Source: Candidatus Omnitrophota bacterium (GTDB lineage: Bacteria > Omnitrophota > Omnitrophia > Omnitrophales > Aquincolibacteriaceae). From it: DNA of 64,000 bases. This document shows positions 445 through 64,000 of the stretch, piece after piece. The stretch spans positions 12,962-76,961 of the forward strand of contig JAUYMS010000017.1 in assembly GCA_030698625.1 (NCBI GenBank), in the 5' to 3' direction. Every line of letters begins with the position of its first letter. The stretch's first letter is position 1. The notes beneath the pieces were generated by a model. It saw only the letters and a program-made list of their open reading frames with translations, made no database searches and had not been told where the DNA came from. A program made the position numbers and the translations under genes.

Positions 445-2202
445 TTGAAGACCGGACTTTCTATAACTGGGTTCTGGAAGTTTACTGCTTTCCACACGCT
501 CGTCTTTTTCAGCATGACGACCATTTTGTGGTCCGCGCCCTCGCTCACCGTCAACGACGTCCTCAGGCAGGGCCTCACCAGTGACAACATCGGACTGCCC
601 TCACTCGTTAATCGCATTGAAGTCCCCGAGACAAGCGGCTCCATCCTAAAGCGTTTCGAAGCGAATTCCTCAGGCCCGTCTATCGTTCACATTCAAGATG
701 CCCACACCCATTACGAAGCGCAACAGAATATCCGCCGCATATTGAATCACCTGTCCGAGGAGTATCAAGTTCAGCACATCTTTCTGGAAGGCGCTATGGA
801 TCGCGTTGATCCGGAACTCATGCGCTATTTCAAAGACACAGAAGCCAACCGTGACATCGCTGAGCTTTTGGCAAAAGAAGGCGTTCTTGGCGGTGCCGAG
901 CTTTTCTTGCTGCAGGCGACAGAGAATGCACAGCAATTAAAAACACAAGCACACGGCGTCGAAGACCCCGATCTTTACAGGAGAAATATCGCGCTGTATC
1001 AAACTGTTTATGCCGACAAGGAAATAGCCGACAACTATTTGACATCGGTGAAAGCCCAGATAGTGACGCGAGCATCCCACGTTTTCGGCAAAAAATTGCG
1101 AAACTTCTTTCGCGAATGGCTTTTTTATCAAGACATCCCCAACGAACTGTTAAGGCAGCTGAACACACTGCGCAAGTATGCTGCCGAAGAACTCGGAGTG
1201 GAGCTAGGCGATGCGCGAGAGCAGATAGACTGGCCCCAGCTCGTGAGATTCTTTAGGCTGCAGCAACTGGAAACAGAAATTGATTTCGAGAAAGCCGGTA
1301 CGGACAAAGGAAGACTTATTGCGTGGATTCGCGAGCAGGAAATAGGTGAGAACTTTGCGGAAGAGTTGAGCGCATGGGACATCAAAAAATCATTTCTCGG
1401 CCGCCAACATGCTGATCTCAGAACTTTCTTAGAGGCGTTACATCAATCTTCGAGGGAGCGGAATTTCAGTTTTGAAACCTACGGAGAGTTGAAGCTGGTG
1501 TTAGGAGCAGCCATCTTGAGGAGTGAGATTAGTGCTACGGAGCTTTTTGATGAAAGCGAGCGCCTCACAGCCCGCATGCTGGGGCGGTTGGCCGCCACCC
1601 CCGAAGAAGAGGCGCTTGTTTCTATATATAAGGATTACGTTCTCTCGGAAAAGCTCTTTTCGCTGGAGCTTGTTTCGGAAGACCATAATGAGCTTGAATC
1701 CAGATTCCGCACCCTGAAACCCTCGCAGCTTATCGCCCGAATCGACGGCGAATACGCAAAATCCTTCGAGAGCAGAGAATTAACGGAGCTGGACGGCTTA
1801 TTCGAGCAGGCACGGGATTTTTATCGTGTTGCCGTAGAGCGAGAAGAGGCCATTTTTGAAAATATGACCCGGCGAATGAAAGAACAGGGCATCGAAAGCG
1901 CCGTGCTGATTACCGGAGGGTTCCATGCGACGGGCTTGCACAGGCTTTTTGAAGAACGGGGTTTTTCCTATGCAAATGTTGTCCCGCATATGCTTGAAGT
2001 TGGCGACAGCAAAAGCTATACGGATCTTTTGATGTTACGGGGGGACTCCCTCACGCGGCGCGCTTACCTAAGCGCGCCGCGCCTCCCTGACATCTCCTTT
2101 CAGCACCAGCTGCCCGAGCACTTCGAAAGTTACCTGGTCTATCACGTGCTTCCGGCTCTTTCCCGGGAGCTTCTGAAGCGTCTCAGCTTAGGGCACGATC
2201 TG
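445..2202 (+). other. Shared N-terminal module of the giant-protein family (copy 1); function unknown
   Basis: Hydrophobic N-terminus MKTGLSITGFWKFTAFHTLVFFSMTTILWSAPS. Blocks conserved across all three copies: IVHIQDAHT (about 682-708), GGAELFLL, WPQLVRFFRL (about 1231-1260), ITGGFHATGL (about 1902-1937). Ends at the first RSELR (2203-2217). Confidence 0.6.
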
Positions 2203-5200
2203 CGCAGTGAGCTTCGAAGTCTAAATCAACAGGCAGCTCTCCTTGATCGTGGCGTCTTGGTTGACGAGGTCACCGGTGAAGTTTCTATTGCCGGTGAGTC
2301 ACTCGGGTTACTGTTCACGGATCGCGGATTGAAAAAGGCGCTGACCGCAACCGCCAATTCAGACGCGGTGAATATCGGGCTTTACGGTAAATGGTTAGCG
2401 GTTCACAGCGCGGCAGGAGAACGCTATACGCTGCAAAAATACAGCGCAGCTCGCGGCGAAGTGATAACCACCAACGCTGTCTATCTGAATAAAGGCGGAA
2501 ATGTCGACCGGGCCCTTTATTCGCCCAACCGAAGAGTTAAGCCGAGCGACGGTAATCGATATGTCGCACGCCAGGTCATCATCTCAGAGTTTGCTAAGGC
2601 GCGGGGGCTTTCCTTTGTGCCGCAGATCATAGATGTCAAGCCTGCCGACTCGACGGTCAGTGAAAACGGACTCATTCAGTTCGAGGATCGGAGTGCCGCC
2701 GAAGACTCACGCGATAAGGTCCTGTATGTGCGCAAGAACGCAGCCGGAATTCCCGCAGACGAGCAGATCGGAAAGTTGAATCCCGCCGAGCGGAGCCTGA
2801 TCTTGCTCGACGTGTTTCGTGCAGTCAAAAAGCTCTTTGACAGCGGTCTTGCGATCGAGGATCTAAAGTTCGACAATTTCCTGATTCGGAAGGATTATTT
2901 GGAAATTCTAAATCACAGAAAGGAGCAGCCGCTGGAGGAACCGGAAACTCTGAGTGTCATTCTTCATGACTTGGGAGGGGCGCTATTTGTTGACCCCGAT
3001 AGCCTGGTGCAATGGCTCGAAACGGAGCGTGCGGGCGGCGCTAAACATCCGCTGGCTGATTTGGTCGACGGGGGAAGGCGTTACAGTCTGGATGGGCGAG
3101 ACAACGGCACCATGCACGCAATTCATAAAAACCAGCAAACGAGTTTTCTGCAAGACGCCGGAAATCTAGTTCGCTTTGAAAGCAGGCTTGATAAAGCCTG
3201 GGCAGGAAACGCTTCGCGAAAGGCGCTTCTTGGTTATTTGGTCATTCATCAACTTGCGAAAACCGCGATCAGCTGGATGACCAAAAGCGTTGATCCGAAA
3301 GAATATTCGCGCCGTGCCTTCGCCGGGATGAGCCATCACGCATGGACTTTTAACAACATCATGCAGGACATCGAGGCTTTAACGCAGCCCGATGCATTCA
3401 GGGCGTTAGAATCCGACGATGTGCTTCAAGAGCGAATGAGCGAGACGGGTCCGCTGAGCAATGAATCTCGTCGGGAGCTCCAAGAGCGTCTTATTGAGCA
3501 GCAATTCGCGGCGCTCTACCAAAATTTAACCTGGATTCATTTGCTCATTCGTCAGGCGCGCCAGGAGACCACCGAGACGAAGACGGACTCGGGCGAAGTG
3601 GCAAGCAGTACGTTCGATACGCTCGATGCGTCCATCGAATCTACCGTGACTCCCGGCGGCGCAGGAATAACGGATGTCATGGAAGCCAAGGCCGAGCGCC
3701 CGACGTTGCCGCGCACAGAAGTGATGGATGCGCGCAGTCCCGTACGCTCTGAGCTGCGCATGGACCCGTTTGATAAGGAAAGCCTGACGGCAGAGGAAAT
3801 GGGCGCGCGCTTAAATGAAAAGGCCAGGGGTAATTCCATCGTCGCAAAGTTCAAGGATACGCTCTTAAGTGTCCAAAGAGATCTGCCATTGGGGCAGATG
3901 CTCAAAGAGATGGAGCAGCAAGTCATTCTGGAAATAGGATCGGGTGAGGATATGCAGCTGATCAACTTCTGGGTACGCGACTTGAAGTTCGATCCCGCGA
4001 AAATCTATGCCATTGAGCCTGCGCTAACCACAGGTTCGAATAACCCGCTTGGTCGAGAAAACTTTGCCGCAGGGCTTTTCCGAGAAGACTTGCCGGAATC
4101 ATGGAAATCGATCCGCTTTGATTGGATATTTGCGTACCACGTGGCCGAAGCATTGCATTCGGGTAAGCCCCTGGACGGTATTAATCATGAGGATTTGCAA
4201 ACGGCTTATGGCCTATTACGAACCGGGGGTCAGCTTACGGTACATCCGCTCGATTTTAATCTCGCTATGGACAAACTGATCCCCGAGTTTGGAATACCTT
4301 CCGGAATTCCACTACCCGCTGAAAGATCCGCTGTGGCAAAGTTTCTGGAAAGTGTGAATTTTGAATACCCATACCGTCCGCTGCTACATGGCGGCTTTAC
4401 TTTCGCCAAGGGTGTCCGTTCCGAGCTCCGCTACGAAGTTAGTGATTTGGTGGGAGGCGAGGCGAATCTCGAGTATCTGCGAAACATTGAAGCGGCGGTC
4501 AATCAGGATATGGAAGCGCCTGCTTACGCGCGACTTGCGATCTATCTTGCTTCGGGTGCGGACATTTCGACCGCGCTTCTTGCGACCGATGCGGACGAAT
4601 ACCTCTTTGTAGAGAGAAGACCCTTTATCAATCCCAACTGGACGTGGGATGAATCAACCGAAAAGCACCTGAATCGCTATGTGGAGGGTAAACAATTTTC
4701 CGATTACGGAATGACAGATGACATGGCAGCTGCGGGAGAGACGCGGAGTTATTTGCGCGGGGAATTAGAGGTTCTCGGGGCCGCAAATATTATCGTGCCT
4801 GGCGCAACCCGTGAGGACGGTATCTACGAGATCTTTTTCACCTGGCAGGGTAGAGAGAGGAAGATTACCTATGTCAGCGCGGAGTCAGAAGCGGAAAGAC
4901 GCGTACAAATCGCCCATGTGATGAAAGGGCGTAAAGGCGCAGATTATCTGATCGTGAAAGCCGGTGACTATGGAGCGAATGTGGGAGGCGTAACCACCAC
5001 GGAATTGAATGGCGTGATCAGCCGTTTCGTTGGGGGCGGGGGGCACCTGATTCTCGATTTTCCGCATCGCCGTAACGACACCGAACCTGTGTCCGTGAAA
5101 CAACCATTATCTGCGAAGTTCGGCTACGGTAAGGCAATGCTGATGCAGGACAGGGCTTTTGTTTACCGGATCGTTCTTTCACGGTCTCACCTACCGGATC

Positions 5201-8200
5201 TGAGCGGGGCGATGAGAACGGCAAGAGAGTGGTTGTGGCTGGCAGCACCATATGGCTTGGTCGGCAGCGGACACCGCATGGGCGGACCCGCGCGCTCCGA
5301 ACTGCGTGAAGGCGGGGAGCAGCTTGAAGATCTACAGATTGTACAAATGGTCAGGATGGATCGTGCGCTTACGAGACTGACCTCAGAGGACACAGAGTAC
5401 GGCAATGAATTGGGGATTACCCCTACCCAGGAAGGGGTAGGGTCTACTTACGTCGAAGGAGAAGTGCGTAGGTTCCTCGAATTTGCGGGCCAAAGTGATT
5501 TACGCGATCAATTGAGTTTCGATCCTTCGCTTGAGGGCGCCCGGGTTCATGTTTTTGGATTCGGAATGCAGGGCTATGAGATTCTGGCCTTTCTCCAGGA
5601 ACTGGGTGCCGGGCGTATCGATGCGGTCAGCGCGTTACCTTCAGACTTTCGCGGGCTTGACCGAACGTTGAAGGATAACGGTCTCCAAGACGCCCATGTC
5701 GACGGATATCTTTGGCAGGGGCAAAACTTGATTTCGGAACTCGCAGAACCTGAAAGTCAAGCCGATATTGTTTTTCTGGCGGATGTCGTGGATGAAAGAC
5801 ACTTCACCCCGGAAGAAATCAGAGCTATTGCCGAAAATCTCATCCGCTATGTTAAACCCGGAGGCCTGCTAATCTCGGCAGGGCAGGTTTACCGGCTTCA
5901 CGAGCTGGGTGCCATACATCCCGAAGACCCTATCGTCAGAATCGAGCACCCCGTTGAAACCCCTGAAGTCGCTTTCTTCTTAAAGGAAAAAACAGATCGC
6001 TCCGAGCTGCGTGCGGATAAAGCGGAGTTGGCGAAGTTAACGGCGGCGTTGGAGCGTGTGTATGCAGCCGTAGCGCTTGATGTTGACGGCACCTTGCTGG
6101 ACGGAACCGGCGACGGGTTCATGAAGAATATCCATCATATCATCGGCTTTCTCCGCGAAGGAGTCCCGGTGGCCATCGTTACCGGAAATAATGAAAGCAT
6201 GGTTAAGGCCATTTTGATTCGCACGATCAAGAATCTCCTCACCTCCGCGAAGGACTACAACATGACAGATGCCGATGCTGCCGCCGCTATGGAGAACCTT
6301 CATATCTATGTCTACAACGGGGCCAAGGGGTTCAATGCCGGAACAGGGGAAGTCTACTACAACAGGTTTTTTGACGAACTGACGGGGCACAGCACGCGCC
6401 ACTTCATCGAGGCAATCTCGAGGGACCCGGGTCTCAGAGATATTGCAGAAAACTCTATGGTTCAGGATGCGCGAGCCTATGGATTTCATTTCTTTCCTTA
6501 CGGCCAGACGCCAGACCTGGATGGATATGCCGACAGACTGAACAAATTTTTTGAGCGCGAGGGTTACCCGCTTGAGGCAAAGACGTCTTCGGTCGGTGTC
6601 GACGTTTTCCCGAAGGGTGTTGATAAGGGCTATGCGATCGCCGATCTTGCTTTGCGAATTGGTGCTGAGCCGAATCAGATCGCCAAGATCGCTGACCGCA
6701 TGCAAAAGGGCGGCAACGATGACGCGTTTAATGATGAAAGCAGTTTTGCGGTAAAGTCTTATGATGAAGATAATCCGAGGCAGATTTCTATGGTTAAGGC
6801 GGTCGAACTCACCGGGGCGGCAGCTACCGGCTATCTGCTGGAACGCTTGAAAATAAAGGGCCGCGCCGACCGATCGGAGCTGCGGACCGAAGACGTGCAG
6901 ATTCTGGATGTCGTCTTCGATCCTGAAACGGGGGCCTATGTTTCGCGGGCGGAACTCGATAGGCGGTCCCGGGAAGAAGCGGGGCGGTCGCGCGAAGCGG
7001 CGATCATTGCAAAGGCGGCAGAGCCGCGCACACCGCTCCAGACCGCCGGAAAATTGCTGGATGTCGCGGGATTTGCTTTTATGGTTCTCGGGGCTAACCT
7101 CTTTACGGCGGGCATTGTTGCGGCCCTCCTGTTTAATATTACGTCGGTCATCGGGATTGTTCTCGTAACGTTGGGAATCGCAACTCTTGCGGTGGTCGTG
7201 GGCGAAAGCACCTTTGTCGGCCTTCCGTATCTATTCGGACGTTACGATTTTGCGAAGCTGGTCGGAATCAGCAATGAAGAGGCGGTAGATCGCGCCGAAC
7301 AGGCGTTTGTCGATGTTAAAGAAACGGCCTTGACGAAGGAAGACTGGCATGTACTCGGCGGCTTGCGTCATGTCGGGGAACCGCGCGGCTTCTTCCGTAT
7401 TGCCTATGACATCATTGAAGTGGTGGTAGGCAAAGGCGATACGGTCCATCCGGCTATTGCCTTCGGGCCGGTACTGCGTTATCAGACCGTGCGCCGATTA
7501 GGGCTTGGAAACGACTTTGACAGACTAATGCCGCGTTACATCAAGAATCTGTCGGGAGATCAACCGTCATTATTGGCGCGCTCTTTTTGGTGGGTTTACG
7601 GGGATTATGAGCTCTTGAAACGCGCTTATTCGTACGGCTACCTTTCTATCGTTCCTTTCTACGCGCTGCCGCACTTTCTCCTAAGCAGCACGCTCTTTCT
7701 GGCTTTGACTGCGCTCAGAATTCTTTCACTCCCGCTCACACTCAGGGGCGGTATCAAGGCGTTCCTTGAAAGACTGAGCATGATGAAAGCTTATGCTGCA
7801 ATTACCCTGCTTTACCTCTCAACCGCGGCGGAATCTATGACGGATAAAACCGTGACAAACGAATTGCCCGATGCGATTACGGTCGGTAAGATGACGGTTG
7901 AGGGCCGAGCGCGGTCTGAATTAAGAGATGATGTCGAAGAGGCTATAGCGCAATGGGCGGCAGGCAAGGAGGTCGAACTCTTGCAAACAGTCTCTGTCGA
8001 CGGATCCGAATTCCGATTTGTGCACCGAGCACTTCCCGTCATGGATGCGTATCCGGGTATGCGTGAGACCATCGAGGTTTATGCGGGGCAGACCCGTATC
8101 GGCGGCATTGTCTTTCGCGTGAGGAGTTCGGGGGTTTGGCGCGACACGCTGATCGGCGGCCCGCTGACGGGCGTCGATGACGCCCTTGATGTGGAGGCTT

Positions 8201-13536: not shown

Positions 13537-13554
13537 TAGGCCGCCAATAAAAAA

Positions 13555-13581: not shown

Positions 13582-13596
13582 ATGCATTTAAAGGGC

Positions 13597-14923: not shown

Positions 14924-14964
14924 TGTAAAGCCTTAGCATCACGAAGACAAGGAGTTCATCGAAC

Positions 14965-20775: not shown

Positions 20776-20959
20776 GGGGATCCTCCTCATGAGGGGTTGT
20801 GAGGAAGAATCACGATCCGACAGGAATACCCTCAGATGCAAGAAACACGCCATGGTGTATAAAGACAAAATTTTAATTCATTAATTATCATAAGCAACTT
20901 CATCAAACCTACTTAGGGAAAAGCTCAAAATGCCGACAATCGCATAAGGATATGTTTGT

Positions 20960-48319: not shown

Positions 48320-48510
48320 GCGATAGCAATTTATAACAGGGCCCAGTTTATTATCACTTGCTGTCATCCCCCCTATTCTATTAGGCCAGGGCATAATTCC
48401 ACTAAGTCGTTGGGTTGAAAACGGTTAGTTCATGTGCGAACCTTTCTCGATCTTCACATCAAACCAAAATTCCGTCTTACAACGTCAAAGGACTGGGGGG
48501 TTTTTCGACG
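48320..48510 (+). promoter_or_regulatory. Intergenic region between giant genes 2 and 3 (no terminator hairpin seen; SD-like AAAGGACTGGGGGG at 48487-48500)
   Basis: Moderately AT-rich 190 bp. It shares an AAGGA(A)CTGGG element with the region upstream of gene 2. Confidence 0.3.
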
Positions 48511-50253
48511 GTGCAGAAGGACTATAGTTATTTCCAGAGAGTGGTTGCGCTCGTCACGGCGCTTGTCTTCTTTACGACAAGCGTGGTCGAGTGGAGCTAT
48601 GCCTCTGCGGCCCCTACTCCCGAGACCCATCTTCAATTCATTTCCGAGCTCGGCATCCCTGCCGATATTGCGACTGTCCGCGATAGCTTCGGTGACTTCT
48701 CCGAAAAGGGGGATCATGTCTTCGTCATCGAAGACGCGCATACCAACTATGATGCCCAGACCAATACCAAAGCCCTTTTAGAATACCTGCAGACGAAACT
48801 CAATATTCACCACGCCTATGTTGAGGGCGCAGCAGCACCGCTTGCACCTGAGCGCATCCGCTTTTACGAAGACGAGGCCACCAATGTGCGGCTCGCCGGG
48901 GAATTGGCAAAAAAAGGCGAAGTCACGGGCATTGAACTTTTTCTGCTTGAGCATGGAAATCATTTCCAGGCTAACGGTGTTGAAGACCTCGGCATGTACG
49001 CCGAAAACCTGGCACTTTACCGCCGTGTCCTTGGGGCAAAGGCCGAATCCGTAGAGCTTTTGAAAATCCTGCGATCGCAAACGGAGCGCATCATCAGCCG
49101 TCTTTTTGGCGCCCGGCTGCGCGAGATCGTCAGGCAGTGGATGGCCTTTCGTGAGCAGCGCATGGATCTCGACCAGTGGATACCCGAGCTCGAACGCGCG
49201 GCGCGGGATTTAGTGCATGTTGATTTTGAAGATCCTATGGCACAGCTCAAGTGGCCGCAGCTGGTCCGGCTCTATCGGCTGAAGCAATTGGAGCAGGATA
49301 TTGACACGGAGAAAATGGAGCAGGAACTCATCCGCGTCGAGGTCTTGATGAAAGCCGCCGGTCAGGAAGGGCTTGCGCAGGAATTTAGACAGCTGCTGAC
49401 CGTCGAGGGCGAACCGGAGTTACGCTTACGGCGTGCCATGGAAGATCTTTACCGGCGCATGCAACCCCTGGGATTTTCTTTCAACGCCTACCCCGCGCTC
49501 CGGAATTTTACCGCGGTCACTATTTTCCGCCGAGAGATGAACGCCCTCGAGATGATGACGGAACTGGAACGGCTCGTCGATACTCTCATGGAAACACTTG
49601 CCGTAACGGATGCTGAAAAGGAATTCCTGCCGTTCATCAAACGTCTTTACCTTCTCGAGAACGCCCTCACACTGACGCTTACGCGTGAGCAGTGGGATCA
49701 GCTGGGTGACGAAGTCCGTCCCGAGGCCCTGCTCGACGAATTGTCTCGGCACAGCAGAAACCTGGCCATCGAGGGACTTGATGAAGAATCCTTGAACAAA
49801 CGGTATGCACGCGTCTTTAATCTGACGGAGTCGGTCAAACGTTTCTATGAGACGGCGCGCGCGCGTGAAAGAGTTCTGGTTAAAAACACCCTTGCCGGGA
49901 TGAAAAGCGAGGGGATTAACAACGCAGTCATGATTGCCGGGGGGTTTCACACCGACGGCATTGCCGCGCTTCTTCGCGAGGCCGGAGTGTCGCACCTCGT
50001 CCTCAGCCCGAATATTCGCAATATCAAGGATGATGAGCAGGACTACTACTGCATGATGACGGGGCGCTGTGATACGGCGGTGCCCGTGCTGCATACCGGA
50101 TTAAATAGTGCGGCGATTCATCGCGAATCGGCCGGCCTGCGGGCTTACCGCTATCGACTTAGGCGCATCGTGGAGACCATAGTGGGATTAGGAATCGGCT
50201 CGCTTGAAGACGACCGGGAACGCGTTTTGCGCTCTTTCGGACTCCTGGCCGAC
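48511..50253 (+). other. Shared N-terminal module (copy 3)
   Basis: VFVIEDAHT (48714-48743), GIELFLLEH, WPQLVRLYRL (about 49250), IAGGFHTDGI (about 49927-49965). Ends at RSELR 50254-50268. Confidence 0.6.
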
Positions 50254-56200: not shown

Positions 56201-59200
56201 ACCAGGACCTGGATCGCAGTCCGCTTTATATCGAAGGTGAAGCAGGAACGGCGAAGAACAAGAAGGTCTACTATGCCGCAAAACTATTACGCAAAGCCAC
56301 GCGATACATGGCGATGCACGATGACATTCACGATGACGACCTGACGGAAAGACGCGGCGTGAATGAAAAGGAAGAAGGTAAGACCGACTGGATCCCTTCG
56401 CCGTTAGTCGAGGCGATGATGAACGGAGATTGGATTATTCTCGATGAGGTCAACAAGGCGAAGACAACGGTTCTTCAGAAACTGAACCAGATCATTCAAT
56501 CCCGCCGCGTGGTACTCCACGACGGAACAGTGGTGACGGCCAAGCCGGGATTTGCGGTCATCATGATGGCCAATCCGCCGCCGAGTTCCGGGGATGCAAA
56601 GGTTTACAGCGTACAAAAGATCTCAGCCGAGATCATGGACCGCCTCCGTTACATGAAGATCGACTACCTGCCGCGCCACGAAGAACTGCAGTTATTGTTC
56701 CATATCCTCATGAAGAAGCGCGGCTTAAAGACCGCAAGTTCGATCCCCAACGTAGACAAAGAAATGGTGCGGAAATTAGTGGACGCGGCGCGTATCATTC
56801 GCGAGAGATATGAGGATGTCGATCCGGCAACCAACTTGAGCCGCGGTCGGGGAAAAAAAGTGGCCCGTCCGTTTTCGACACGCGCATTGGTCAATATCGT
56901 CGAGCATATTGCGGCATATCCCGAAGAAAGAGACCGGATTCGTTCGGTCATCAAACGCTTTTATTCGTATGAGTGGGAAAAGGACGATCAGGTCAGAAAG
57001 GTCGAAGAGGCCTTGAACAACAAGCTGCCGCGTTTTGACGAGCCGTATGTGTTTTCCGACGGCGATTTGATGGGGCCGAAGTATTCGACAAACGCCGAGG
57101 GAAAGCGCGTGTTGGAATTTGCAGGCGTCCAGGTGGAACTCGGGGAACATGCGCCGCTCGGCATGGACGATGTCCCCCTTGAGATGCGCCTGACATGGAC
57201 TTCGAAAAACCTGGAGTATCTGCGCCACATGATGATGGACCTAAGGGCGGGCAATCACATGCTGTTTATCGGTGAGGCCGGCACGGGAAAAGACACGATC
57301 GCAGAATACGTGACTTACTTGACGCATGGCCCGGTGGTGGAAACCTTCGGGGTGACGAAGAATGCAATGGCCGAGGACTTTATCGCCTATGTCGGTTTGG
57401 GCGAGGGTGAGAAGGTCGCCAAAGACGGGTTGGTCCTTGCCGTGGGTAAAAATGAAACAGGTCTCGTGCCGTCGTATGTGGTGCGCGCCATGTTGGCCGG
57501 ACGGCCGGTGATCTTGAGTGAAATCAACAAAGGGAAACCGGAGGTATTCGCGGCACTCAATAATATTTTGGAATACGGGTGGATCGATCTGGCCAACGGC
57601 CGTCGTGTCCATGCCGAGCCCGGTTTTGTGATTATCGGTACGATGAATCCTCCGAAACGGCAGTACATGGGGAACTACGGGCTCTCGGGAGAATTTATCG
57701 ACCGGTTCTCGACCTATAAATTTGATTATCTGGAGAGGGATCAGGAAGTCGATATCCTGGAAGATTTTAATCAGTATATCAGGACGCTTCCGGACCGGAA
57801 TTTCTACCGGTTAAAACGGGAGTTCATCGAGAAAATTACCGATATGGTGCGGATCCTGCGCAGGAGATACGACGACAACGAACTGCCGCACCCGGTGTCG
57901 ATGCGTGCCCTCAAACGGCTGATCGTGACGTTTGCCGAGTATCCTGAAATCTATAAGGCCGAGAAGAAAGATACCGAAAAACAGACGCCGCTCGAGAAGG
58001 CGATCCTCAGCTCCATTTTCTTCCACGACCCGGTTCATCAGGAAGAGGTGTTGAAGGCGATGAGGGCTGCCAATGTGAAGGGGCTGCGCGACATTGTGGA
58101 GTTTGATGTCTCGACCGGTTCGCAGGTCCTGGATGCCGCTTTTCAGCAATTGCGCTCGAATCTCGGAAGCATCGACTCCATGATCCGCGCCCTGGCCGAG
58201 TTTGACCGGTTGATTGAAGACAATAAGGATAAAATCCCTCCGGCGATTTTCAAGAAGGCACAGCCGGCGTACCGCCATTTGGTGGCTAATGAATTTCCGC
58301 CGAAGTGGGGCGAAAGCCAGCTAGCCGACGCGGTGGTGGTGCATGTGCTCCAGCGCCTTGGCGGTGAATTAGCACTACCGGTACTGCCGCCAATTAACCG
58401 CGAAGTGCTGCGTACGGGGCCACTTGATCTCGCGGCGCATCCGGAATTCGGGGTGAGGTTTATCGGCGACATGGTGCAGGGTATTGCCGAAGTTACAGGT
58501 CAGAAGCAGGACGCCAGGTTCCTGAAGATCGCAGGTAAGGTGTTTTTGGGGTTGAGGAAGGGTTTTTCGGCCAAACAGATCGTGCGGGCCTTCGAACGTG
58601 ACGGCCTGAAACTTTACGGGACCGAGCGTACCGGGGATAGCAAGGGTGGGGAATACTTCGCGGCATTCTTCGGTTTGGCCAAGGATGTGCAGGATGCGGT
58701 GCGCAGCAATACGGCGATTACCGAGGTGGCCAATTACGAGGCACGCATTAAAGTGCTCGGGTTATCTCAGGACTGGGTGGATGTATTCGCCAAGCTGAGC
58801 CGTCCGGCGGTGAACCCGGTTTTGGCGAAGACCTGGCGCGATCAATTGATTACGGCCGTTGATCTCTCCAAACGCGACCGAATAGTCCGTCTTGCGATTC
58901 TCCTGACGCTTCAGATTCTCTTTAAGAATAGCGACCGCGTCTTTATGGATCAAGTGGTCCGTGAACGTATCAAGATTCTCTCGCGGTCCGAATTGCGGTC
59001 TGACGAAGACTCACAGCCCCAACAGCATCTTTCGATTTGGCCCGTTCAAGGGAAGCCGGCTCCGTCATCGGGCTTCGTTCCGGTAGACGAAATTGACGTC
59101 AAGCTGGTCCTATCGGCTGCCCTGAAGGAACTTCGCACTCAACATTTTGCTCTTTATCAAAACCTCTGGACGGAGATCAATGCCGAATGGGGTCCGAATT

Positions 59201-62200
59201 TTCTGTGGGTCGAAGGGCTGCCGGCGCCGGCCATGGTGTACGCACATGAACTGGACGGTGGCGATCGCGCGACGGTTTTTGCGCTTGATGTCGGCCTCAG
59301 AGGCTATCTTGAGAAGGCTTACTCGGAGAAAAACGAAAAGCGCAAAGAAGCGGCGACGGAATTCCTGCTTATGCTCTTAATCGGGGAAGCGGCTTCGCTT
59401 GAGGGACGTCCTATGAAGGAAACCCGCACGCCGGATTTAAAAAATGATTTACTCGCCGCGCTTACTGTTGCTAAGCACTTCTACAGTGTTCCGTCTCAGG
59501 CGCCAGTGCAGCAATCCGCTCTTTTTGCCGTGGTCAAAGAAGGAAACCGGTTTGTCTTTAAGCGAAGCGACGGACCCGCCATTGATTTGTCGCGGGGGCT
59601 CGAGGCGGTAAACGGGGTCCAGTTTACGGTCAACGAAGGCGGAGAGCCGCGGGTCCATTTTCACGGATCAGGCCAGGGCGTTTGGGGTCTCTATGACCAG
59701 TTTGGGAGAAAAGTCGGCCCCTTTGAACAGATCGTGCCGTGGCCTGTTGAATATCCGGTTTCTATGCGTGATGGGAAGGGCGGTATCCAAACCTATTTCT
59801 GGGTATTGCAGGATGGGCAATGGATTTTGTACAACCAGGACGGCGTCATCGGCGACGGCCTAAACGACTTAAAAAATACCTTTGCTCACGTTGAAAGGCC
59901 GAGACTCTATGAGAACGAGAACGGCGATCCGTATATCCTTTTTATAGGGCAACCGGCGGGGAGTAACTGGGGCCTCTATTCGGTAACGCAATCCGAAGGT
60001 CAGGGACCTGTGGTGACTCTTTTTCAAGGTGGTTTTGACAGCCGGCGCCATAGGGACTTTGATGAGAAGGAATCCGGTGTCGGTTATCCACAGCCACTTC
60101 GCCTGCCGGACGGCAGACGCAGTCTCGTCGTGCAGAACAATCTCCAACTGATCTATCGAGGGGCCGCTCTCGGTGAAGAGGCGATCTTTCACAATCGAAA
60201 AACCGTTAAAGCCGGCTTTGAAGAAACCGGGGAACCCCACCCTGCTGCGGATTCAAAAGGCAGGATTTACACCTTCTTCCGGGCTAAAGAAAAGAACCCC
60301 GCGGAACCCAATGAGAAAGGGTTATGGCGTATTTACAATAATGCGGTCCCTGTGTCGGCGCCGCTGGCTGAGATCGGCGAGCCGGAGCCCTTTTTTGACA
60401 AACAGGAAGGAGCGCATGCACTCTATAAAGGAAGGGCTGCCGGAGACGATGCGCCCTGGCACCTTTATCAAGACGGCATGCCCCTAACCAAAGCTTATGA
60501 AGAAATCGGCGATGTACGGGTCGTTGTGACTCCGGATAAAGAGGTGGCGATTATTTTTGCCGCGAGGACTTCGGAATCGTGGGGTGTCTATCAGCAGAGT
60601 CCCGGCGCGGAGCCCGGTACGGAGGTCCTTCATGAAGACGGTTTTAGCAATATCCGCCACTTGACCGTTGCCGTTGATGAGCGGGGCACCCGGCGTATCT
60701 ACTTCACCTCATTGAATGATACGACCTGGGCCGCTCATGTTGACTTTCGCGCTGTGTGGCATGGTCCCGAGGAACCCTCCGCGGCGCGGGTGATGCACAC
60801 CGATGACGGAAATGTGGATTTCTATTTTGAAGCGGCATATTCGGGGCACAGGGCCCTATTTAACGGAGACGGAGAGATCGCAAAATCATTCGGCACGCTG
60901 CTGGATGCCGTCGTGGCCTTTGAAGCCGTGAACTTTGGACGCGAGGAAGGTGCCGTCCAAAAACTGAAACCCGAAGAGCGGGGCAAAAGAAGGCGGGATT
61001 TGCTGGCGGCTCTTCTTAAAGAATTAGGCGAACGGCCCGCGGCAGCGCATATGACCCAGTTACTCCAGGTGTTACGCCGCTTCAGCGGCGAGTCTGTAAG
61101 CGGTGAGGCCGGCATCACGGCGCTCACCGACCATCTTTTCACTCAGCCGGCATATCAGAAAGCATACCAGCGTACCGGGCAGGATGTCATGGCGACTATT
61201 CAAGAGGTTGTCGCTGAGAACCGGAAACGCTCTGAACTCCGATCAGACGGCCCGAAGGAGCCGAAGATTGCGCCTGTCGACGAAATTAATATCGAAATGC
61301 TGCGAGGGGCGCTGGATGTATTGAAGGCCAAGAACCCTGATGTCTATGCCGATATCGACCGTGCCGTCTCTTCGCAGTACGGTAAAAGTTACTTATGGGT
61401 GCAGAACATTCCGGGCATTGCGGCCCTCTATACGGACACCCTGGATGACGGCGAAGTGTATTCTTCGCTCGGGATCAACGTCGCGTGGAGGGGACTCATC
61501 GAAGCGGTGTACGCGTCGTTGAAAGTAGACGCAATGAAGGACTTGGATTATTTCCTCTATCTCGTGCTGCTGCGCGAAGGCCGCAAGCTACGCGGCGGGG
61601 ATTTCAACGAGACGATTACACCGAATCCCGCTCTGGAATTGAGGGCGTTCCTCAGCGCCGCAGACGGGTACTTCACATTGGGTTCCGGAGCGACGGAAAG
61701 GCATATCGTCATGGCTCAGGTCCATGCGGAAAACGGAAAACACTTTATTCGTACGAGCGACGGTCAAACCCTTCAAGTTGAATACAACCTGCAATTGGAC
61801 GACATCAAAAATCTTATGATGGCGATCGATGATGTCGGGAATCCGCATCTTTTTTACACGGGCCAGCGTCCCGACGGAAAAATGAGCCTTTATGACAGCA
61901 ATGAGGCATTAGCCGAGGCATATGATGAGATCAAATTTGCGGCCGGCCCCATCGACCGAACGGGATTCGTACAGGCCTTTTATTTCGGCAAGAGGGACGG
62001 GAAGTGGGCCCTGTTCCGGAACAAAGAACATTTGATCTCGGGGCTTGAGGGTGTCGGGGCTGCACGCATTGCCCTCGATAAACGAGGGGATACGCATCTC
62101 TTTTTTACCGCATTGAAGGGCGGCGTTTGGCGGCTCTATCGTGATGGAGAGCTCTACTTCAAGGATGCCGAAGAGGAGCTCGCCGATACCGATGAGCCGG

Positions 62201-64000
62201 ACATGTCAACGCCGGAGGCGCGGGGGCGCGCGCTGCGGGCCGCCGTTGAAGAAACCGCCGCAGGACGGGTGATAAGAGATGCCCTGGAGAATATGGGCAT
62301 CACCTCACCTAACCCGGGAGAATCCATGCTCGATGAATTTTCGGGCGGCCCTATCGATGATGACCTCGCCTTCCAACTCTTAGAGGACTTAGAGGGCGGC
62401 GCCGCTGATGAGCATATCCTTATCCCATTCGAAGAATTAGACGCGGAGCCCGATTTCGAAGAGGTGCCCGCAGTTACAGGGCCCGAATTGGCCCTTGCGC
62501 AGAGAATGGAAAAACAGATCCTTGCGATTCTGAACATCCCCAGCCCGACTCGGGCGGCCGTTCTACAGGACCTAGTTGAAAAAATCGCAACGCTGCTGAA
62601 CCCGCGCATTATTGCGCGAGTTCCGGAATCGATTCTCATTAACATCTCGGGGCGCTTACAGCGGGCACAGGAAACACCCGGTTTTAAGAAATATAGCCGC
62701 GCGCTTCAGGGCATGGTGGACAAAGTGAAAGCGAGGCTGGAAGAAGTCAAAGCGGCAAAACGGACGGCTGGCGAAAGGAGACCCTCCGCCGGGGCGGTCC
62801 TTGCCGGCGCAAGCGCGGCCCTAACCCGGGGAATCGGTTTGAAGCCGAATCGGCGACACATTTTTGCGGTCGAGACGATGCAGGACGGAGACGACCGCAC
62901 CCAGGTTTTTATTGCTGCCAGGGTGCAGAATGGGAAGGTCAGCCTCTTTCGGGAAACGACGCGCCTCGTTGCGGAAGTCGATAAGGTGCAAGATATGATA
63001 ACCGTCGCCGACGGTGAAGGAAATCCGCACCTCATTTCCGTCGTAAAGCGCGGAGTGAACTCGGTGCTTTATCTGGATTCTGATGAGGTCAAGGGAGACT
63101 TTGAAGAGGTGGGGCATGTCGCACCTCTGGTGGATAAACGAGGCCGAGTGCAGGTTTACTTTACGGCGAAGAAAAACGGGACGTGGGAGCTTTACCGAAA
63201 TGCAGTCAAACTGATGGCGAGCGCCGATGATATTCAAAAACCGGTGGTCCTGCTTGACGGAAACGGCAATGAACATGTCGTTGTGCCGCGCGCCTCCAGG
63301 ACGACTTCCGTCGAGATGATCGATTTTCTCATCCAAACACGGCCGAAAACTGACGAGCCGGCCGAAGAAGAACTCTATAACGAAAAACAGGTCCTCGCGA
63401 GCGGCTTTAAGAGATTCGGAAAACCGGCCGTGGGGCTGGATACGAACGGCAGGATCCGCATTGTCTTTACCGGGACCAAAGAAAAGGGGAGCGGGTCCGA
63501 TCGCACCGAAGTCTGGAGCCTCTTTGACGGTGAAAACGAGATCCTCAAAGGGAGTGCGTTCATCGGTGACCCGGTCGCTGCGAATGATAAAACCGGGAAA
63601 TTTATTTATTATTATGTCGCCAAAGAGACGGGTTTTATAATGAGAAGCGAAACGTATGCCCTCTATAAGGACGAGGGGTACGGCCCCGTGAAGACGGCGG
63701 CGGGATTTTCAGACATGCAACCGCCCGTGCTCATTCCGGCGGCGAGGGGAGGAGTCGAAGGTTATTTTACCGGCCGCAAGAAGAGCGCCTTCGGTATCTA
63801 TGATGAAAGTGGGGCCCTCGCCAGGGGTTTCGGAGAAGGGCTCGTCGAGGTTGCCGGTATGGGTGCGGATGTCGTGACGCGGGATGACACGGATACCCAG
63901 AAAACGGCCGCAGACACGCTCCTGCTGCGGCAGCGCGTGCAATCGTTGATCGGACGTCTAAGACCCAAAGAGATGCACGCAGGCTGGAAGACATTTTTTG
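48511..64000 (+). CDS. Giant multidomain protein 3, 5' partial (more than 5163 aa; continues beyond the window end)
   Basis: Open in one frame from the GTG at 48511 to position 64000; the frame was verified at six widely spaced points. The N-terminus VQKDYSYFQRVVALVTALVFFTTSVVEWSYASAAP...HVFVIEDAHT aligns with genes 1 and 2. The alternative TTG at 48415 is less likely. Confidence 0.85.
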   Translation, partial: MQKDYSYFQRVVALVTALVFFTTSVVEWSYASAAPTPETHLQFISELGIPADIATVRDSFGDFSEKGDHVFVIEDAHTNYDAQTNTKALLEYLQTKLNIHHAYVEGAAAPLAPERIRFYEDEATNVRLAGELAKKGEVTGIELFLLEHGNHFQANGVEDLGMYAENLALYRRVLGAKAESVELLKILRSQTERIISRLFGARLREIVRQWMAFREQRMDLDQWIPELERAARDLVHVDFEDPMAQLKWPQLVRLYRLKQLEQDIDTEKMEQELIRVEVLMKAAGQEGLAQEFRQLLTVEGEPELRLRRAMEDLYRRMQPLGFSFNAYPALRNFTAVTIFRREMNALEMMTELERLVDTLMETLAVTDAEKEFLPFIKRLYLLENALTLTLTREQWDQLGDEVRPEALLDELSRHSRNLAIEGLDEESLNKRYARVFNLTESVKRFYETARARERVLVKNTLAGMKSEGINNAVMIAGGFHTDGIAALLREAGVSHLVLSPNIRNIKDDEQDYYCMMTGRCDTAVPVLHTGLNSAAIHRESAGLRAYRYRLRRIVETIVGLGIGSLEDDRERVLRSFGLLADRSELRDQPVPTDAVEDHLIKPVLNRLQASHPDVAANLKLNITFEGEANIFWAKNMTKPVAIYSEVLDIGPRTASLAIDSRLRSAFIEASNSGNPLFAAAAEDALLLLVLREAIALNSPHVSDTLNLPVAIAFTSFLEQSMSFKELSSRLALEHVSDWEDYFKQVIGILDAAAPEFRLATLHRLWMEQAAGHQTLGDIDEIINFVSKEGGVDMGSDVVTMTVSEGLASASANRRAVLESRKRILLRELAAMQQGPARFRGVGSLVPWDLPAEDGYNLAGEPQGLFSQDGKYVALGLRYEQGDSGLSGVSDGDLVTEGASNGIMNQVVLYGVLHDAQSHIVDDVREYRTIPAEALTRFAEITGLVMSSDNQLLVVSGPARDGGKTLVSVFNISGKLQLKDGQAVDGEVYDELRTLEFDETPDFVEIAADNYALFVGLGKELRRYEFIMDEAEISGLKAPVIGKTATYEVKAAAEIPEAVPLLARLKFVEGKSPELSLRHDGNVAEAMIQMLSSIPIAALSDGSAVLAVSASKALMMGLQAETVGSLAVAEAIQARVRVIETEIAAIDAPQRSELRTADFDPEKHPATIEITSYYTSRDHLRMALAIGNAELYTQALGESIHFAKKAMDLIDHRGEVQTIVSYLRTKQDVPFQRDTIGDTFEITRVQEDKFSREEQEMIEVETQKFLKALGFQGSVAEDLAREIMLVSYPLSLANMMPPTIEGAEFQPEMTREIGKSLHQFVFAESLTLGGAVVVNPSLAKDITIQILQKNDPIAFKGSFLHEVVHFLALKNALPFDVSRELVTQAITTAVFLTEAGSLEPILSQIPEDMQEWRILYETVVSWGETAAEQGHRIKRPEELDSMVRDFIETRVPEIMNMPYAKYNDFVDRLSGVYLGAFAAKTKALDPKTNLYKFIVDYGIRHLPRVRNNAFTRSLTQRDHAFIQEVMKTLSAVAQVTIPDGRITFKEQSMKETQERGLGRMVYDADKHVIYYLPWDIVEFGKDASVGHLLQEIFRYQHTYDGEIEEAYDHTAFRLLFSVAESARVVALGLAEFPERLIDIEAFYERKLRILDLEIEKDRMAEQPKFVQYVEGLFYALAKSGDPENPEWDPRIVTDIVKEALNDTFAVVAEAMAAEGPTAGRYFYEVIRDQVWPVVERLLELDKKEALEQELENQTMSQMIENGDFEIVEAPPSEGEPSPMPLPPGAKLKINISPGSTAGAIDMKDLSPEARAALEEAMKKFMENMDDEQKKKFEEAARQALENSLEDAVDGMAPITSGMDGELPGQGKFKPGRGSPQVPGRGDVSTDALGELYQDLEEAEDQANRISQQADAIEAEAARVIQEALDAARQAAEIDREGEGDKAKALEMEKALAGLAQQLKNLRAEANRFHDMADDVEAKIDDVRDDPDLDQDQVQEIRDRVDDLQGKALEIDDDAAGADKDGQQAVKSGDEMKDMMERDPDRTNFIKGRAKRVQETLEDAKGRLDEVQKDAQEAAAQSGDLKGETRAMRQGVVQNAPMEVEESPVPDISVDDGLEDAPGEGGVGAGGGDPGGHIKIKMPNRSRPGKKRRRKQAQKKGLQPEKVRKHTVDPRVAESLRELLQDEAFQAPEKPFDIDDFYTATEPGDVSPDQRHIYDMIRNLSRSHEATIRDAILSVLDELESTEDIPRQKKGRLDGRRLAVVDSGIKDINKRKVTPDAPVVRVSILIDVSGSMFSDVNNLQVIPPVSDEYLEQALKTKNRITNAVRTALLFMEAFRNEERVELEIGLFAARQKIILRFGEEITDAKAYEVIRTILNHGLGGDNTDLAGLQMMVNSQREREAEMGPASKIVVIIADGGINYTDALGLQTTMQNNTDMAFLPRGIGPASANVKGAYAPFGKEVDDVTKLAKGLGDDVLNEIERLRPTGGDDRSELRVMHPVIVRPERFETDNFKVVREGKDEFLVVKGGRYPTFKAKVDKGGRNVPDEDLYETETNVADVVQIIKHVRNQDLDRSPLYIEGEAGTAKNKKVYYAAKLLRKATRYMAMHDDIHDDDLTERRGVNEKEEGKTDWIPSPLVEAMMNGDWIILDEVNKAKTTVLQKLNQIIQSRRVVLHDGTVVTAKPGFAVIMMANPPPSSGDAKVYSVQKISAEIMDRLRYMKIDYLPRHEELQLLFHILMKKRGLKTASSIPNVDKEMVRKLVDAARIIRERYEDVDPATNLSRGRGKKVARPFSTRALVNIVEHIAAYPEERDRIRSVIKRFYSYEWEKDDQVRKVEEALNNKLPRFDEPYVFSDGDLMGPKYSTNAEGKRVLEFAGVQVELGEHAPLGMDDVPLEMRLTWTSKNLEYLRHMMMDLRAGNHMLFIGEAGTGKDTIAEYVTYLTHGPVVETFGVTKNAMAEDFIAYVGLGEGEKVAKDGLVLAVGKNETGLVPSYVVRAMLAGRPVILSEINKGKPEVFAALNNILEYGWIDLANGRRVHAEPGFVIIGTMNPPKRQYMGNYGLSGEFIDRFSTYKFDYLERDQEVDILEDFNQYIRTLPDRNFYRLKREFIEKITDMVRILRRRYDDNELPHPVSMRALKRLIVTFAEYPEIYKAEKKDTEKQTPLEKAILSSIFFHDPVHQEEVLKAMRAANVKGLRDIVEFDVSTGSQVLDAAFQQLRSNLGSIDSMIRALAEFDRLIEDNKDKIPPAIFKKAQPAYRHLVANEFPPKWGESQLADAVVVHVLQRLGGELALPVLPPINREVLRTGPLDLAAHPEFGVRFIGDMVQGIAEVTGQKQDARFLKIAGKVFLGLRKGFSAKQIVRAFERDGLKLYGTERTGDSKGGEYFAAFFGLAKDVQDAVRSNTAITEVANYEARIKVLGLSQDWVDVFAKLSRPAVNPVLAKTWRDQLITAVDLSKRDRIVRLAILLTLQILFKNSDRVFMDQVVRERIKILSRSELRSDEDSQPQQHLSIWPVQGKPAPSSGFVPVDEIDVKLVLSAALKELRTQHFALYQNLWTEINAEWGPNFLWVEGLPAPAMVYAHELDGGDRATVFALDVGLRGYLEKAYSEKNEKRKEAATEFLLMLLIGEAASLEGRPMKETRTPDLKNDLLAALTVAKHFYSVPSQAPVQQSALFAVVKEGNRFVFKRSDGPAIDLSRGLEAVNGVQFTVNEGGEPRVHFHGSGQGVWGLYDQFGRKVGPFEQIVPWPVEYPVSMRDGKGGIQTYFWVLQDGQWILYNQDGVIGDGLNDLKNTFAHVERPRLYENENGDPYILFIGQPAGSNWGLYSVTQSEGQGPVVTLFQGGFDSRRHRDFDEKESGVGYPQPLRLPDGRRSLVVQNNLQLIYRGAALGEEAIFHNRKTVKAGFEETGEPHPAADSKGRIYTFFRAKEKNPAEPNEKGLWRIYNNAVPVSAPLAEIGEPEPFFDKQEGAHALYKGRAAGDDAPWHLYQDGMPLTKAYEEIGDVRVVVTPDKEVAIIFAARTSESWGVYQQSPGAEPGTEVLHEDGFSNIRHLTVAVDERGTRRIYFTSLNDTTWAAHVDFRAVWHGPEEPSAARVMHTDDGNVDFYFEAAYSGHRALFNGDGEIAKSFGTLLDAVVAFEAVNFGREEGAVQKLKPEERGKRRRDLLAALLKELGERPAAAHMTQLLQVLRRFSGESVSGEAGITALTDHLFTQPAYQKAYQRTGQDVMATIQEVVAENRKRSELRSDGPKEPKIAPVDEINIEMLRGALDVLKAKNPDVYADIDRAVSSQYGKSYLWVQNIPGIAALYTDTLDDGEVYSSLGINVAWRGLIEAVYASLKVDAMKDLDYFLYLVLLREGRKLRGGDFNETITPNPALELRAFLSAADGYFTLGSGATERHIVMAQVHAENGKHFIRTSDGQTLQVEYNLQLDDIKNLMMAIDDVGNPHLFYTGQRPDGKMSLYDSNEALAEAYDEIKFAAGPIDRTGFVQAFYFGKRDGKWALFRNKEHLISGLEGVGAARIALDKRGDTHLFFTALKGGVWRLYRDGELYFKDAEEELADTDEPDMSTPEARGRALRAAVEETAAGRVIRDALENMGITSPNPGESMLDEFSGGPIDDDLAFQLLEDLEGGAADEHILIPFEELDAEPDFEEVPAVTGPELALAQRMEKQILAILNIPSPTRAAVLQDLVEKIATLLNPRIIARVPESILINISGRLQRAQETPGFKKYSRALQGMVDKVKARLEEVKAAKRTAGERRPSAGAVLAGASAALTRGIGLKPNRRHIFAVETMQDGDDRTQVFIAARVQNGKVSLFRETTRLVAEVDKVQDMITVADGEGNPHLISVVKRGVNSVLYLDSDEVKGDFEEVGHVAPLVDKRGRVQVYFTAKKNGTWELYRNAVKLMASADDIQKPVVLLDGNGNEHVVVPRASRTTSVEMIDFLIQTRPKTDEPAEEELYNEKQVLASGFKRFGKPAVGLDTNGRIRIVFTGTKEKGSGSDRTEVWSLFDGENEILKGSAFIGDPVAANDKTGKFIYYYVAKETGFIMRSETYALYKDEGYGPVKTAAGFSDMQPPVLIPAARGGVEGYFTGRKKSAFGIYDESGALARGFGEGLVEVAGMGADVVTRDDTDTQKTAADTLLLRQRVQSLIGRLRPKEMHAGWKTFF
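53690..54800 (+). other. Long acidic coiled-coil region followed by a Gly-rich and highly basic stretch (KKRRRKQAQKKG, about 54930-54965)
   Basis: Heptad-like, E/D/A/K-rich sequence with low complexity (…DAIEAEAARVIQEALDAARQAAEIDREGEGDKAKALEMEKALAGLAQQLKNLRAEANRFHDMADDVEAKIDD…). Confidence 0.5.
55320..55900 (+). other. von Willebrand factor A (vWA) domain with a MIDAS motif
   Basis: VRVSILIDVSGSMFSD (the DxSGS MIDAS at 55363-55377) and a later IVVIIADGG strand. Confidence 0.6.
56180..56640 (+). other. AAA_5 / MoxR-like ATPase domain 1
   Basis: Walker A IEGEAGTAKN (about 56236-56262); Walker B-like WIILDEVNKA (about 56436-56460); VVLHDGTVVTAKPGFAVIMMANPP. Confidence 0.6.
57200..57700 (+). 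other. AAA_5 / MoxR-like ATPase domain 2
   Basis: Walker A FIGEAGTGKDT (about 57271-57300); Walker B VILSEINKG (about 57508-57534); HAEPGFVIIGTMNPP. Confidence 0.65.
59600..64000 (+). repeat. Array of at least 15 degenerate repeats of about 45-50 aa, each ending in a G-x-W-x-L-Y(R/N/Q) motif (putative beta-propeller blades); interrupted by RSELR at 61228 and an acidic linker at about 62180-62480
   Basis: Examples: DKRGDTHLFFTALKGGVWRLYRDGELYF; DKRGRVQVYFTAKKNGTWELYRNAVKL; DTNGRIRIVFTGTKEKGSGSDRTEVWSLFDGENE; QGVWGLYDQFGRK; SNWGLYSVTQSEG; ESWGVYQQSPGAE. Confidence 0.55.

Follow-up and report, generated by a model that had tools for sequence, protein, structure and literature searches.

Does a bacterial gene that runs for many kilobases encode one giant protein or a chain of separable ones? 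The question is raised by a 64,000-nt stretch (the window) of contig JAUYMS010000017.1, where three plus-strand open reading frames (ORFs), here called G1, G2 and G3, occupy 54,916 nt (85.8%) without internal stops. The first-pass annotation of this DNA had described three giant same-strand ORFs filling about 86% of it; their coordinates and sizes were confirmed, and the genes are real and uninterrupted. G1, G2 and G3 are members of a family of modular mega-proteins that is very large, centred on Omnitrophota and fixed in its layout, namely an anchored N-terminal domain (the head), a chain of unrelated modules punctuated by the pentapeptide RSELR, and a conserved C-terminal signature. The first reading had noted neither the punctuation, nor the resemblance of the head to TIKI proteins, nor the C-terminal signature. 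We put forward, at somewhat less than an even chance, that the products are exported, membrane-anchored polyproteins that would be cut at their RSELR junctions, possibly by their own heads.

G1 starts with TTG behind a GAGGGAGGG Shine-Dalgarno sequence, G2 with ATG and G3 with GTG at 48511. The 26.3 kb of G2 contain zero stops. G3 is still open at the window end; its full product is MDP3919639.1 (5493 aa, 'AAA family ATPase'), which ends ~992 nt past the window. The G1 product is an exact match of MDP3919627.1 (a 'hypothetical protein' at NCBI) and is P0002 in our family set. Both proteins belong to the same 80,174-bp contig of a Candidatus Omnitrophota metagenome-assembled genome (MAG), and the parallel with Omnitrophota giant genes drawn at first reading was thus literally right. 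The exact G2 protein is missing from a 15-billion-protein collection in which G1 and G3 are present; the accession gap between MDP3919627 and MDP3919639 has room for G2, and the annotation there may use another start or several pieces.

Sequence similarity among the three products was confined to their N termini. In all-vs-all BLASTP the N-terminal ~540 aa were 29-33% identical (E 1e-57 to 1e-83), and beyond the heads nothing was found even at E 0.01, in agreement with the earlier description of one common head and unrelated tails. A hydropathy scan likewise recovered the hydrophobic N-terminal start claimed for each gene. The shared module had been given as 580-660 aa; the sharing was borne out, and the length was not, since it is the distance to the first RSELR (aa 587, 666 and 582). 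A head profile was built from the three window heads and one relative, and an exhaustive search of cluster representatives returned 8993 of them at E<=1e-3, with 4775 still matching at the stricter E<=1e-30. In 150 of the 150 best matches the head was located at residues ~1-600, in proteins of 500-7818 aa. A genome scan yielded 44 head loci, nearly all in Omnitrophota MAGs. There the head opened the ORF every time, and the ORFs ranged from stand-alone heads (521-584 aa) up to >3900 aa. Several genomes carried two to four head genes, and adjacent or divergent pairs were recurrent. The search for head homologues in metagenome databases suggested by the first-pass annotation thus uncovered a large family, whose genes cluster in other Omnitrophota genomes too. 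The window heads are up to 39-42% identical to heads elsewhere and so nearer to these than to each other (28-33%), which makes them old paralogues and not the result of a recent local duplication. Of the proposed birth by duplication and accretion, the common head with divergent tails remains and the recent local duplication has to be given up. At two related loci the reading frame is broken: at L003 (13210-13213) a head-family ORF goes on after a frame change in a 1999-aa ORF with junction motifs, and at L041 (10438-10465, an Endomicrobiales bin) a frame change splits the head itself. Either break might reflect a sequencing error, a pseudogene or a programmed frameshift.

G1 and G2 each contain 13 exact copies of the pentapeptide R-S-E-L-R, and G3 contains six. 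This amounts to 32 copies compared to 0.05 expected from composition (0.014 in G1 and 0.024 in G2); shuffles with a looser pattern gave 0.4-0.7 per protein. The first copy is found 20-130 aa past the head, and the eight neighbouring genes of the window contain none. The copies are situated at domain boundaries, where they flank HAD, receiver (REC), HD-GYP, UDP-glucose 6-dehydrogenase (UGDH) and AAA_5 domains; an acyltransferase is flanked by the variant RSEPR. As in a polyprotein, independent units in one ORF are split by a recurring signal, here by 32 RSELR copies. Small residues precede the motif, and Ser/Thr/Ala and then acidic residues follow it. In an AlphaFold (AF2) model the copy ahead of the G1 C-terminal module lies in a linker with a predicted local distance difference test score (pLDDT) below 50. 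A Tat-like signal peptide directly after the motif was observed in 12 instances, including G1 aa 3855 (RSELR-AMSRRGFLERVMKTAVLASL). Among the 31 sites inside the window, Glu is encoded by GAG (16) or GAA (15), and six codons each are used for Leu and for the last Arg. Since synonymous codons vary in this way, selection acts on the peptide. The codon families show a bias, with CGN for the first Arg at 31 of 31 sites (background 80%) and TCN for Ser at 30 of 31 (background 60%), while third positions are free.

The same punctuation was found throughout much of the family. RSE[LVMI]R was detected 314 times in the best 150 representatives (0.79 per thousand amino acids, kaa). Across the fetched loci the motif density was 0.74 per kaa in head-bearing ORFs versus 0.055 per kaa in other ORFs, and the non-head ORFs carrying it are few, large and 5'-truncated. 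Inside one protein the variable fourth residue shows more uniformity than expected (0.52 vs 0.34), and in other lineages the peptide is conserved as R-[SA]-E-x-R with a different x. An alternative peptide, x[AS]SLG, is used by a minority clade of 17 proteins, compared to 96 with R[SAP]ExR and one with both, so that the two types are mutually exclusive; it follows the head clade (17/17 nearest neighbours) and one C-terminal class. P0073, P0078, P0085, P0103, P0110, P0113, P0115, P0123, P0132, P0135 and P0148 carry this type, and locus L042 has it in the form KSLG. An extended junction, SPERARAEVR, is present in 7-8 copies at L013 (CAYJTB010000002.1) and suggests that the recognition element is longer than five residues in some lineages. 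Stand-alone heads have neither junction motif nor tail nor an [AS]A ending. Long tails with no detectable punctuation motif were observed at L028, L031, L032, L035, L036, L037 and L044, where head identity is 21-24%; the distant punctuation-free members include four genes of one marine-biofilm MAG and Candidatus Omnitrophus magneticus.

The AF2 model of the G2 head (pLDDT 84.4, predicted template modelling score 0.75) comprises an N-terminal helix, a disordered linker and an alpha/beta core that is split by a ~300-residue helical insert. As in the TIKI superfamily, the core has a parallel sheet flanked by helices; its best structural matches were BcR135/136, EreC, HopBA1, ChaN and TraB. Foldseek on the head returned no significant match. 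In the model the core resembles the TIKI/TraB/ChaN/erythromycin-esterase fold, with a match that is only moderate, and the head is a putative hydrolase. Residues H94, E122, E159, E176, R475, G500, G501 and H503 (G2 numbering) are invariant in 33 heads. Four of these, H94, E122, E176 and H503, each directly follow a core beta-strand in the model and are putative active-site residues. Their modelled placement matches the position logic of the TIKI enzymes, which have a 2His/2Glu centre (PMC6254334). The commonest weak Pfam match was PF04187 (ChaN, Tiki superfamily), seen in 4 of 33 relatives with a best E of 3e-4. The R-D-x-x-M ... G-G-F-H pattern of the head presumably echoes TraB/ChaN consensus motifs, a likeness that was taken as a lead only and not as a test. 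On the three window heads themselves Pfam gave no match above threshold to any superfamily model, and NCBIfam gave nothing for heads or C-terminal modules. Nothing relevant was retrieved from PDB sequences with the head profile, and nothing with G1. A 5.8-billion-protein word index, queried with a single head sequence and then with a 33-sequence profile, returned one protein only. A mean of 3.1 Lys+Arg was counted before the N-terminal helix versus 0.44 after it, and 122 family members versus 3 have the N-in/head-out pattern. By the positive-inside rule the head is therefore predicted to lie outside the cytoplasmic membrane.

The opposite end of the proteins is conserved as well. Ala-Ala or Ser-Ala ends 111 of 151 family proteins, and 13 of 15 complete tail-bearing ORFs of independent genomes end in [AS]A; the last residues are SSAA in G1, AAAA in G2 and AIAA in G3. 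The last ~300 residues of family tails fall into few recurrent classes, each starting with the last junction. Shared ends of this kind speak, as independent evidence, for three complete genes rather than chimeras of the assembly. The AF2 model of the G1 C-terminal module (pLDDT 78.8) gave generic Rossmann-like alpha/beta matches, none of them informative. The Ala-Ala/Ser-Ala ending (13525-13533 in G1, 48308-48316 in G2) sits behind an amphipathic helix. Among P0002-P0150 and loci L005-L042 nearly every complete tail-bearing member has it, even distant ones without RxExR. It is reminiscent of C-terminal recognition of the ssrA/ClpX or Tsp type.

Between head and end lie mutually unrelated modules of ~170-1300 aa (Table 1); some are enzymes, signalling domains or membrane hairpins, and many are segments without annotation. 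Pfam and PDB-sequence searches annotate a minority of the G1-G3 sequence, and Pfam scans of the single modules leave most of them blank. The enzymatic, signalling and membrane mosaic described at first reading was recovered, the repeat modules were not: a duplicated module with two transmembrane (TM) helices in G1 and two AAA_5 units in G3 were the only repeat modules found at DNA or protein level. The AAA_5 block of G3 begins directly after the RSELR at aa 2487. An extra central and UDP-binding copy (39155-40024, aa ~5742-5993) stands behind the complete UGDH of G2. In the hydropathy scan, G1 and G2 had internal TM segments and G3 had no TM helix beyond the N-terminal one. No stand-alone homologues of the Tat-signal module of G1 were found, and Pfam, applied to whole proteins and to modules, detected no other protease domain in the three ORFs. 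Across the family, only 4% of ordered pairs of tails have any similarity. The homology blocks that do occur start <=15 residues from a motif in 23% of cases vs 5% at random, and 16% span a motif vs 37% by chance. The module behind the first G2 junction reappears in P0086, where it begins exactly at a junction, and also lies deep within P0113.

Table 1. Features of G1, G2 and G3 in the window (nt positions count from its first letter; aa positions refer to the respective protein)
Feature	Position (nt)	Strand	Description
G1	445..13536	+	4363-aa head-family gene; ORF list, exact P0002 match
G1 head	445..2202	+	hydrophobic anchor and TIKI/TraB/ChaN-like domain, to first RSELR
G1 RSELR, 13 copies	2203..12549	+	15-nt site starts 2203, 3745, 4417, 5293, 5998, 6871, 7912, 8431, 9073, 9772, 10399, 12007, 12535
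G1 HAD-type hydrolase	6070..6696	+	aa 1876-2084; PF08282; between motifs at aa 1852 and 2143
G1 membrane region	7054..9549	+	aa 2204-3035, ~7-8 hydrophobic helices; hydropathy scan
G1 paralogous 2-TM modules	8446-9072, 9088-9771	+	each RSELR-bounded; Smith-Waterman z=45
G1 Tat-like-signal module	12022..12534	+	directly after RSELR (RSELR-AMSRRGFLERVMKTAVLASLSLP)
G1 C-terminal module	12550..13533	+	class C0, common to 16 other family members
G2	21986..48319	+	8777-aa head-family gene; ORF list, stop-free
G2 head	21986..23980	+	aa 1-665; TM helix aa ~5-30, disordered linker aa 30-53, alpha/beta core, ~300-aa helical insert
G2 RSELR, 13 copies	23981..47449	+	15-nt site starts 23981, 27848, 29936, 32078, 33758, 34592, 35480, 37736, 40025, 42434, 43586, 46313, 47435
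G2 RSEPR variant	25100	+	
G2 malonyl-CoA:ACP transacylase-like acyltransferase	25151..26065	+	aa 1056-1360; 13 aa after RSEPR
G2 receiver and HD-GYP	34202..35428	+	aa 4073-4160 and aa 4290-4481; RSELR aa 4203 between, aa 4499 closing
G2 UDP-glucose 6-dehydrogenase	37763..39964	+	aa 5260-5722; starts 4 aa after RSELR aa 5251, at profile position 2; second partial copy behind it
G2 pyruvate phosphate dikinase-like ATP-grasp and phosphohistidine	43841..44824	+	aa 7286-7613
G2 C-terminal module	47450..48316	+	
G3	48511..64000	+	first 5163 aa of 5493-aa head-family gene (MDP3919639.1)
G3 head	48511..50253	+	aa 1-581
G3 RSELR, 5 copies in window	50254..61242	+	15-nt site starts 50254, 51958, 55969, 58984, 61228
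G3 weak VWA, then two MoxR/midasin-type AAA_5	55354..57636	+	aa 2282-2428, then aa 2492-3042
G3 sixth RSELR			aa 5221, beyond window

The three genes do not form a strict tandem array as had been claimed, because G1 and G2 have eight unrelated ordinary genes between them, of which two are encoded on the minus strand; only G2 and G3 adjoin each other. The interval codes for an M24 peptidase, a split transketolase, a gamma-glutamyltranspeptidase, NUDIX, Bax1-I and MORN proteins and one protein of unknown function. Each gene had also been assigned its own AT-rich upstream island (254-444, 21707-21985 and 48320-48510); the GC content there is 0.37, 0.41 and 0.445, values that intergenic spacers elsewhere in the window cover as well (0.31-0.49), and a reading of the islands as special AT-rich regulatory elements was rejected. 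The window contains no tandem repeats, no long dispersed DNA repeats and no tRNA genes, and promoter and terminator scans of it gave background level only. The window start cuts a gene of menaquinone biosynthesis (futalosine route, PF02621), whose 3' end occupies positions 2-253. The transketolase (15303-17080) is encoded as separate N-terminal and C-terminal subunit genes with a 4-nt overlap (16118-16121), and a 219-aa minus-strand ORF without Pfam match (20209-20868) lies between the Bax1-I and MORN genes.

Very long, multi-enzyme, membrane-anchored proteins of Omnitrophota have been published (10.1101/2023.11.21.568195; 10.64898/2026.06.07.730766; PMC10066038), and the size and domain promiscuity of G1-G3 are therefore not new. 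The thresholds used were >20 kb for ORFs (Seymour et al. 2023, PMC10066038) and, for proteins, at least 10 kaa (Nielsen & Lui 2026, 10.64898/2026.06.07.730766) or >30 kaa (West-Roberts et al. 2023, 10.1101/2023.11.21.568195). All three products stay below both protein thresholds, and only G2 (26.3 kb) passes 20 kb. Like the published proteins, they originate from Omnitrophota, with head relatives almost only on Omnitrophota contigs; they begin with a signal or TM segment, lack annotation over most of their sequence, have tails of poor conservation and carry many unrelated cytoplasm-type domains (HAD, HD, receiver, sugar-nucleotide enzymes) per polypeptide. They differ in being shorter (4.4-8.8 kaa). 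Domains of the Archaeovorin and Dockerin types (SecA_DEAD, C39 or S8 peptidase, dockerin/TSP3) had no Pfam match in G1-G3, as whole proteins or per module, and no type II secretion, type IV pilus or glycoside-hydrolase genes were located within the 64-kb window. In the papers on Omnitrophota giant proteins that were searched and read we found no mention of a TIKI-like head, an R-S-E-x-R junction or an [AS]A C terminus, and literature searches for RSELR or for an Omnitrophota polyprotein gave nothing relevant. The notion of an undescribed system accordingly fails for size and domain content and holds for RSELR, head and C-terminal signature, which we did not find described.

With the TIKI/TraB/PrgY/GumN/ChaN/erythromycin-esterase superfamily the head shares the alpha/beta core, conserved His and Glu after core strands and a conserved Arg ahead of the G-G-F-H strand motif. 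It is predicted to be extracytoplasmic, as are TraB/PrgY, ChaN and the Tiki ectodomains. Unlike members of the superfamily, its core is split by the ~300-aa helical insertion, it fronts multi-kiloresidue tails and it has no significant Pfam sequence match. The family is similar to MARTX toxins and viral polyproteins in its mosaic modules in one ORF, its protease-like domain in cis, the exchange of modules among members and a short recurring junction signal. In contrast to MARTX, the candidate protease is TIKI-like and stands at the N terminus, the junction consists of a strict pentapeptide instead of a loose Leu-X site, and processing is here something that we infer. A MARTX toxin as such was rejected, with no RTX-type repeats, no CPD or RTX Pfam matches and no type I secretion genes in the window. 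A polymorphic toxin was rejected too, as was a polyketide synthase/nonribosomal peptide synthetase megasynthase: one acyltransferase-like domain (in G2) was found and no ketosynthase, carrier or condensation domains.

How might such a polyprotein work? A positively charged N terminus and a single hydrophobic helix would anchor the precursor, with the remainder outside the cytoplasmic membrane. The ~540-aa head leads into the chain of unrelated modules. A flexible linker with a short junction peptide (in this genome always R-S-E-L-R) stands before every module, and the conserved end module with its last Ala-Ala or Ser-Ala closes the chain. The junction peptide may be a site-specific processing signal that is cut by the head or by another dedicated protease, and once the protein is exported such cuts would free the modules or part them from one another. 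The head is the first choice for this protease because the motif is found only in head ORFs, starts just after the head and changes with the head clade. One head with many tails would be explained by modules being gained, duplicated and exchanged as junction-bounded units over evolution. The peptide GHDLRSELRSLNQ is a candidate substrate for the purified head; since the motif is Arg-flanked, tryptic data would be non-discriminating for cleavage.

Several points weigh against a polyprotein cut at RSELR. The head is a candidate hydrolase only, whose invariant His and Glu residues may come together in one pocket, and its fold match is only moderate. An extracytoplasmic head sits uneasily with tail enzymes of cytoplasmic type that depend on NAD+, ATP, UDP-glucose or c-di-GMP. 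Tat signals function only from the cytoplasm, and those behind an exported head sit uneasily as well. The lack of a further TM helix in G3 adds a topology difficulty. One motif for three ~30%-identical heads fits a shared trans-acting factor equally well, and shared ancestry alone may explain why the motif type follows the head clade. Finally, the tails at L028, L031, L032, L037 and L044 carry no recognisable punctuation.

The same layout could be that of single, uncleaved, membrane-anchored scaffolds, a 'multi-enzyme cluster' in which RSELR is a linker, capping or docking motif; the helical insert of the head or a partner protein, for example, might bind RSELR and organise the chain. Published work takes such ORFs as single proteins, with peptides from one giant ORF (PMC10066038; 10.1101/2023.11.21.568195), a motif in linkers is equally suited to binding, and three divergent heads use the same one. 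We nevertheless regard scaffolds as rather unlikely. The exact pentapeptide is kept 32 times despite synonymous turnover, which is abnormal for passive linkers, signal peptides directly behind the motif could hardly be used unless their N terminus were free, and UGDH, HAD and acyltransferase domains begin 4-20 aa past the motif and match their profiles from position 1-4 on, as native N termini do. Cleavage by a separate trans-acting protease or by export-coupled machinery, with the head serving in ligand or haem binding (ChaN), as an esterase (Ere) or as an anchor, seems improbable to us: the motif is confined to head-carrying ORFs and first appears only 20-130 aa downstream of the head, the three ORFs yielded no further protease domain, and the neighbouring M24 peptidase and gamma-glutamyltranspeptidase are of exopeptidase type. 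It would, on the other hand, account for an identical motif over heads of ~30% identity, which suggests one genome-wide recognition factor, and for stand-alone heads without motif-bearing tails. The TIKI superfamily also has the non-protease members ChaN, Ere and PMT, the last without the 2His/2Glu motif (PMC6254334).

Module exchange and duplication exactly at the motif, Arg1 always encoded by CGN with Ser as TCN at 30 of 31 sites, and the fact that the RSELR 15-mers are the only DNA repeats in the window could also be read as a signal in DNA or RNA. The 15 nt would then be a microhomology for in-frame cassette exchange or an internal translation signal, and the peptide a by-product. This is very improbable, considering that third positions are free to vary (Glu 16/15, and six codons each for Leu and the last Arg), that no conserved flanking nucleotides, RNA structure or start-codon context were seen at the sites, and that R-[SA]-E-x-R is held as a peptide in other lineages with different x. 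That the giant ORFs are artefacts of assembly or annotation, by chimeric joins or operons fused through frameshift errors, deserves almost no credence. The source is metagenome-assembled and the related loci L003 and L041 have frame breaks, but a 54.9-kb open frame is impossible by chance, long or tandem repeats that might have collapsed are absent, and the family head at the start and the family C-terminal module with [AS]A at the end recur in independent assemblies from many sites.

The polyprotein reading can be carried one step further. A secreted, tethered precursor with its own TIKI-like protease, cut at R-S-E-x-R into a dozen proteins, would amount to a modular effector polyprotein that host-dependent Omnitrophota deliver into a host or prey. 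Delivery into a host or prey cell is suggested by the cytoplasm-type enzymes and ATPases among the products, which would make sense only there. We consider this extension doubtful. If it is true, the junction motif could split giant Omnitrophota ORFs generally into functional units.

The roles of giant bacterial ORFs have been called 'poorly understood' (PMC10066038), unknown cleavage points block the structural dissection of giant proteins (10.1101/2023.11.21.568195), and the motifs that proteases might recognise are unknown (PMC11573180). The locus described here is an instance of a known phenomenon, the long mosaic genes of Omnitrophota, and exposes a family-wide architecture that we did not find described. 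The junction rule lets giant proteins be divided into modules for structure prediction and annotation. A strict, family-specific junction that is conserved as a peptide and shares its ORF with a protease-like head makes a concrete and cheaply testable hypothesis. If processing does take place, these genes would represent a large, unnoticed class of bacterial polyproteins, with thousands of metagenome clusters, and a new role for the TIKI/TraB fold.

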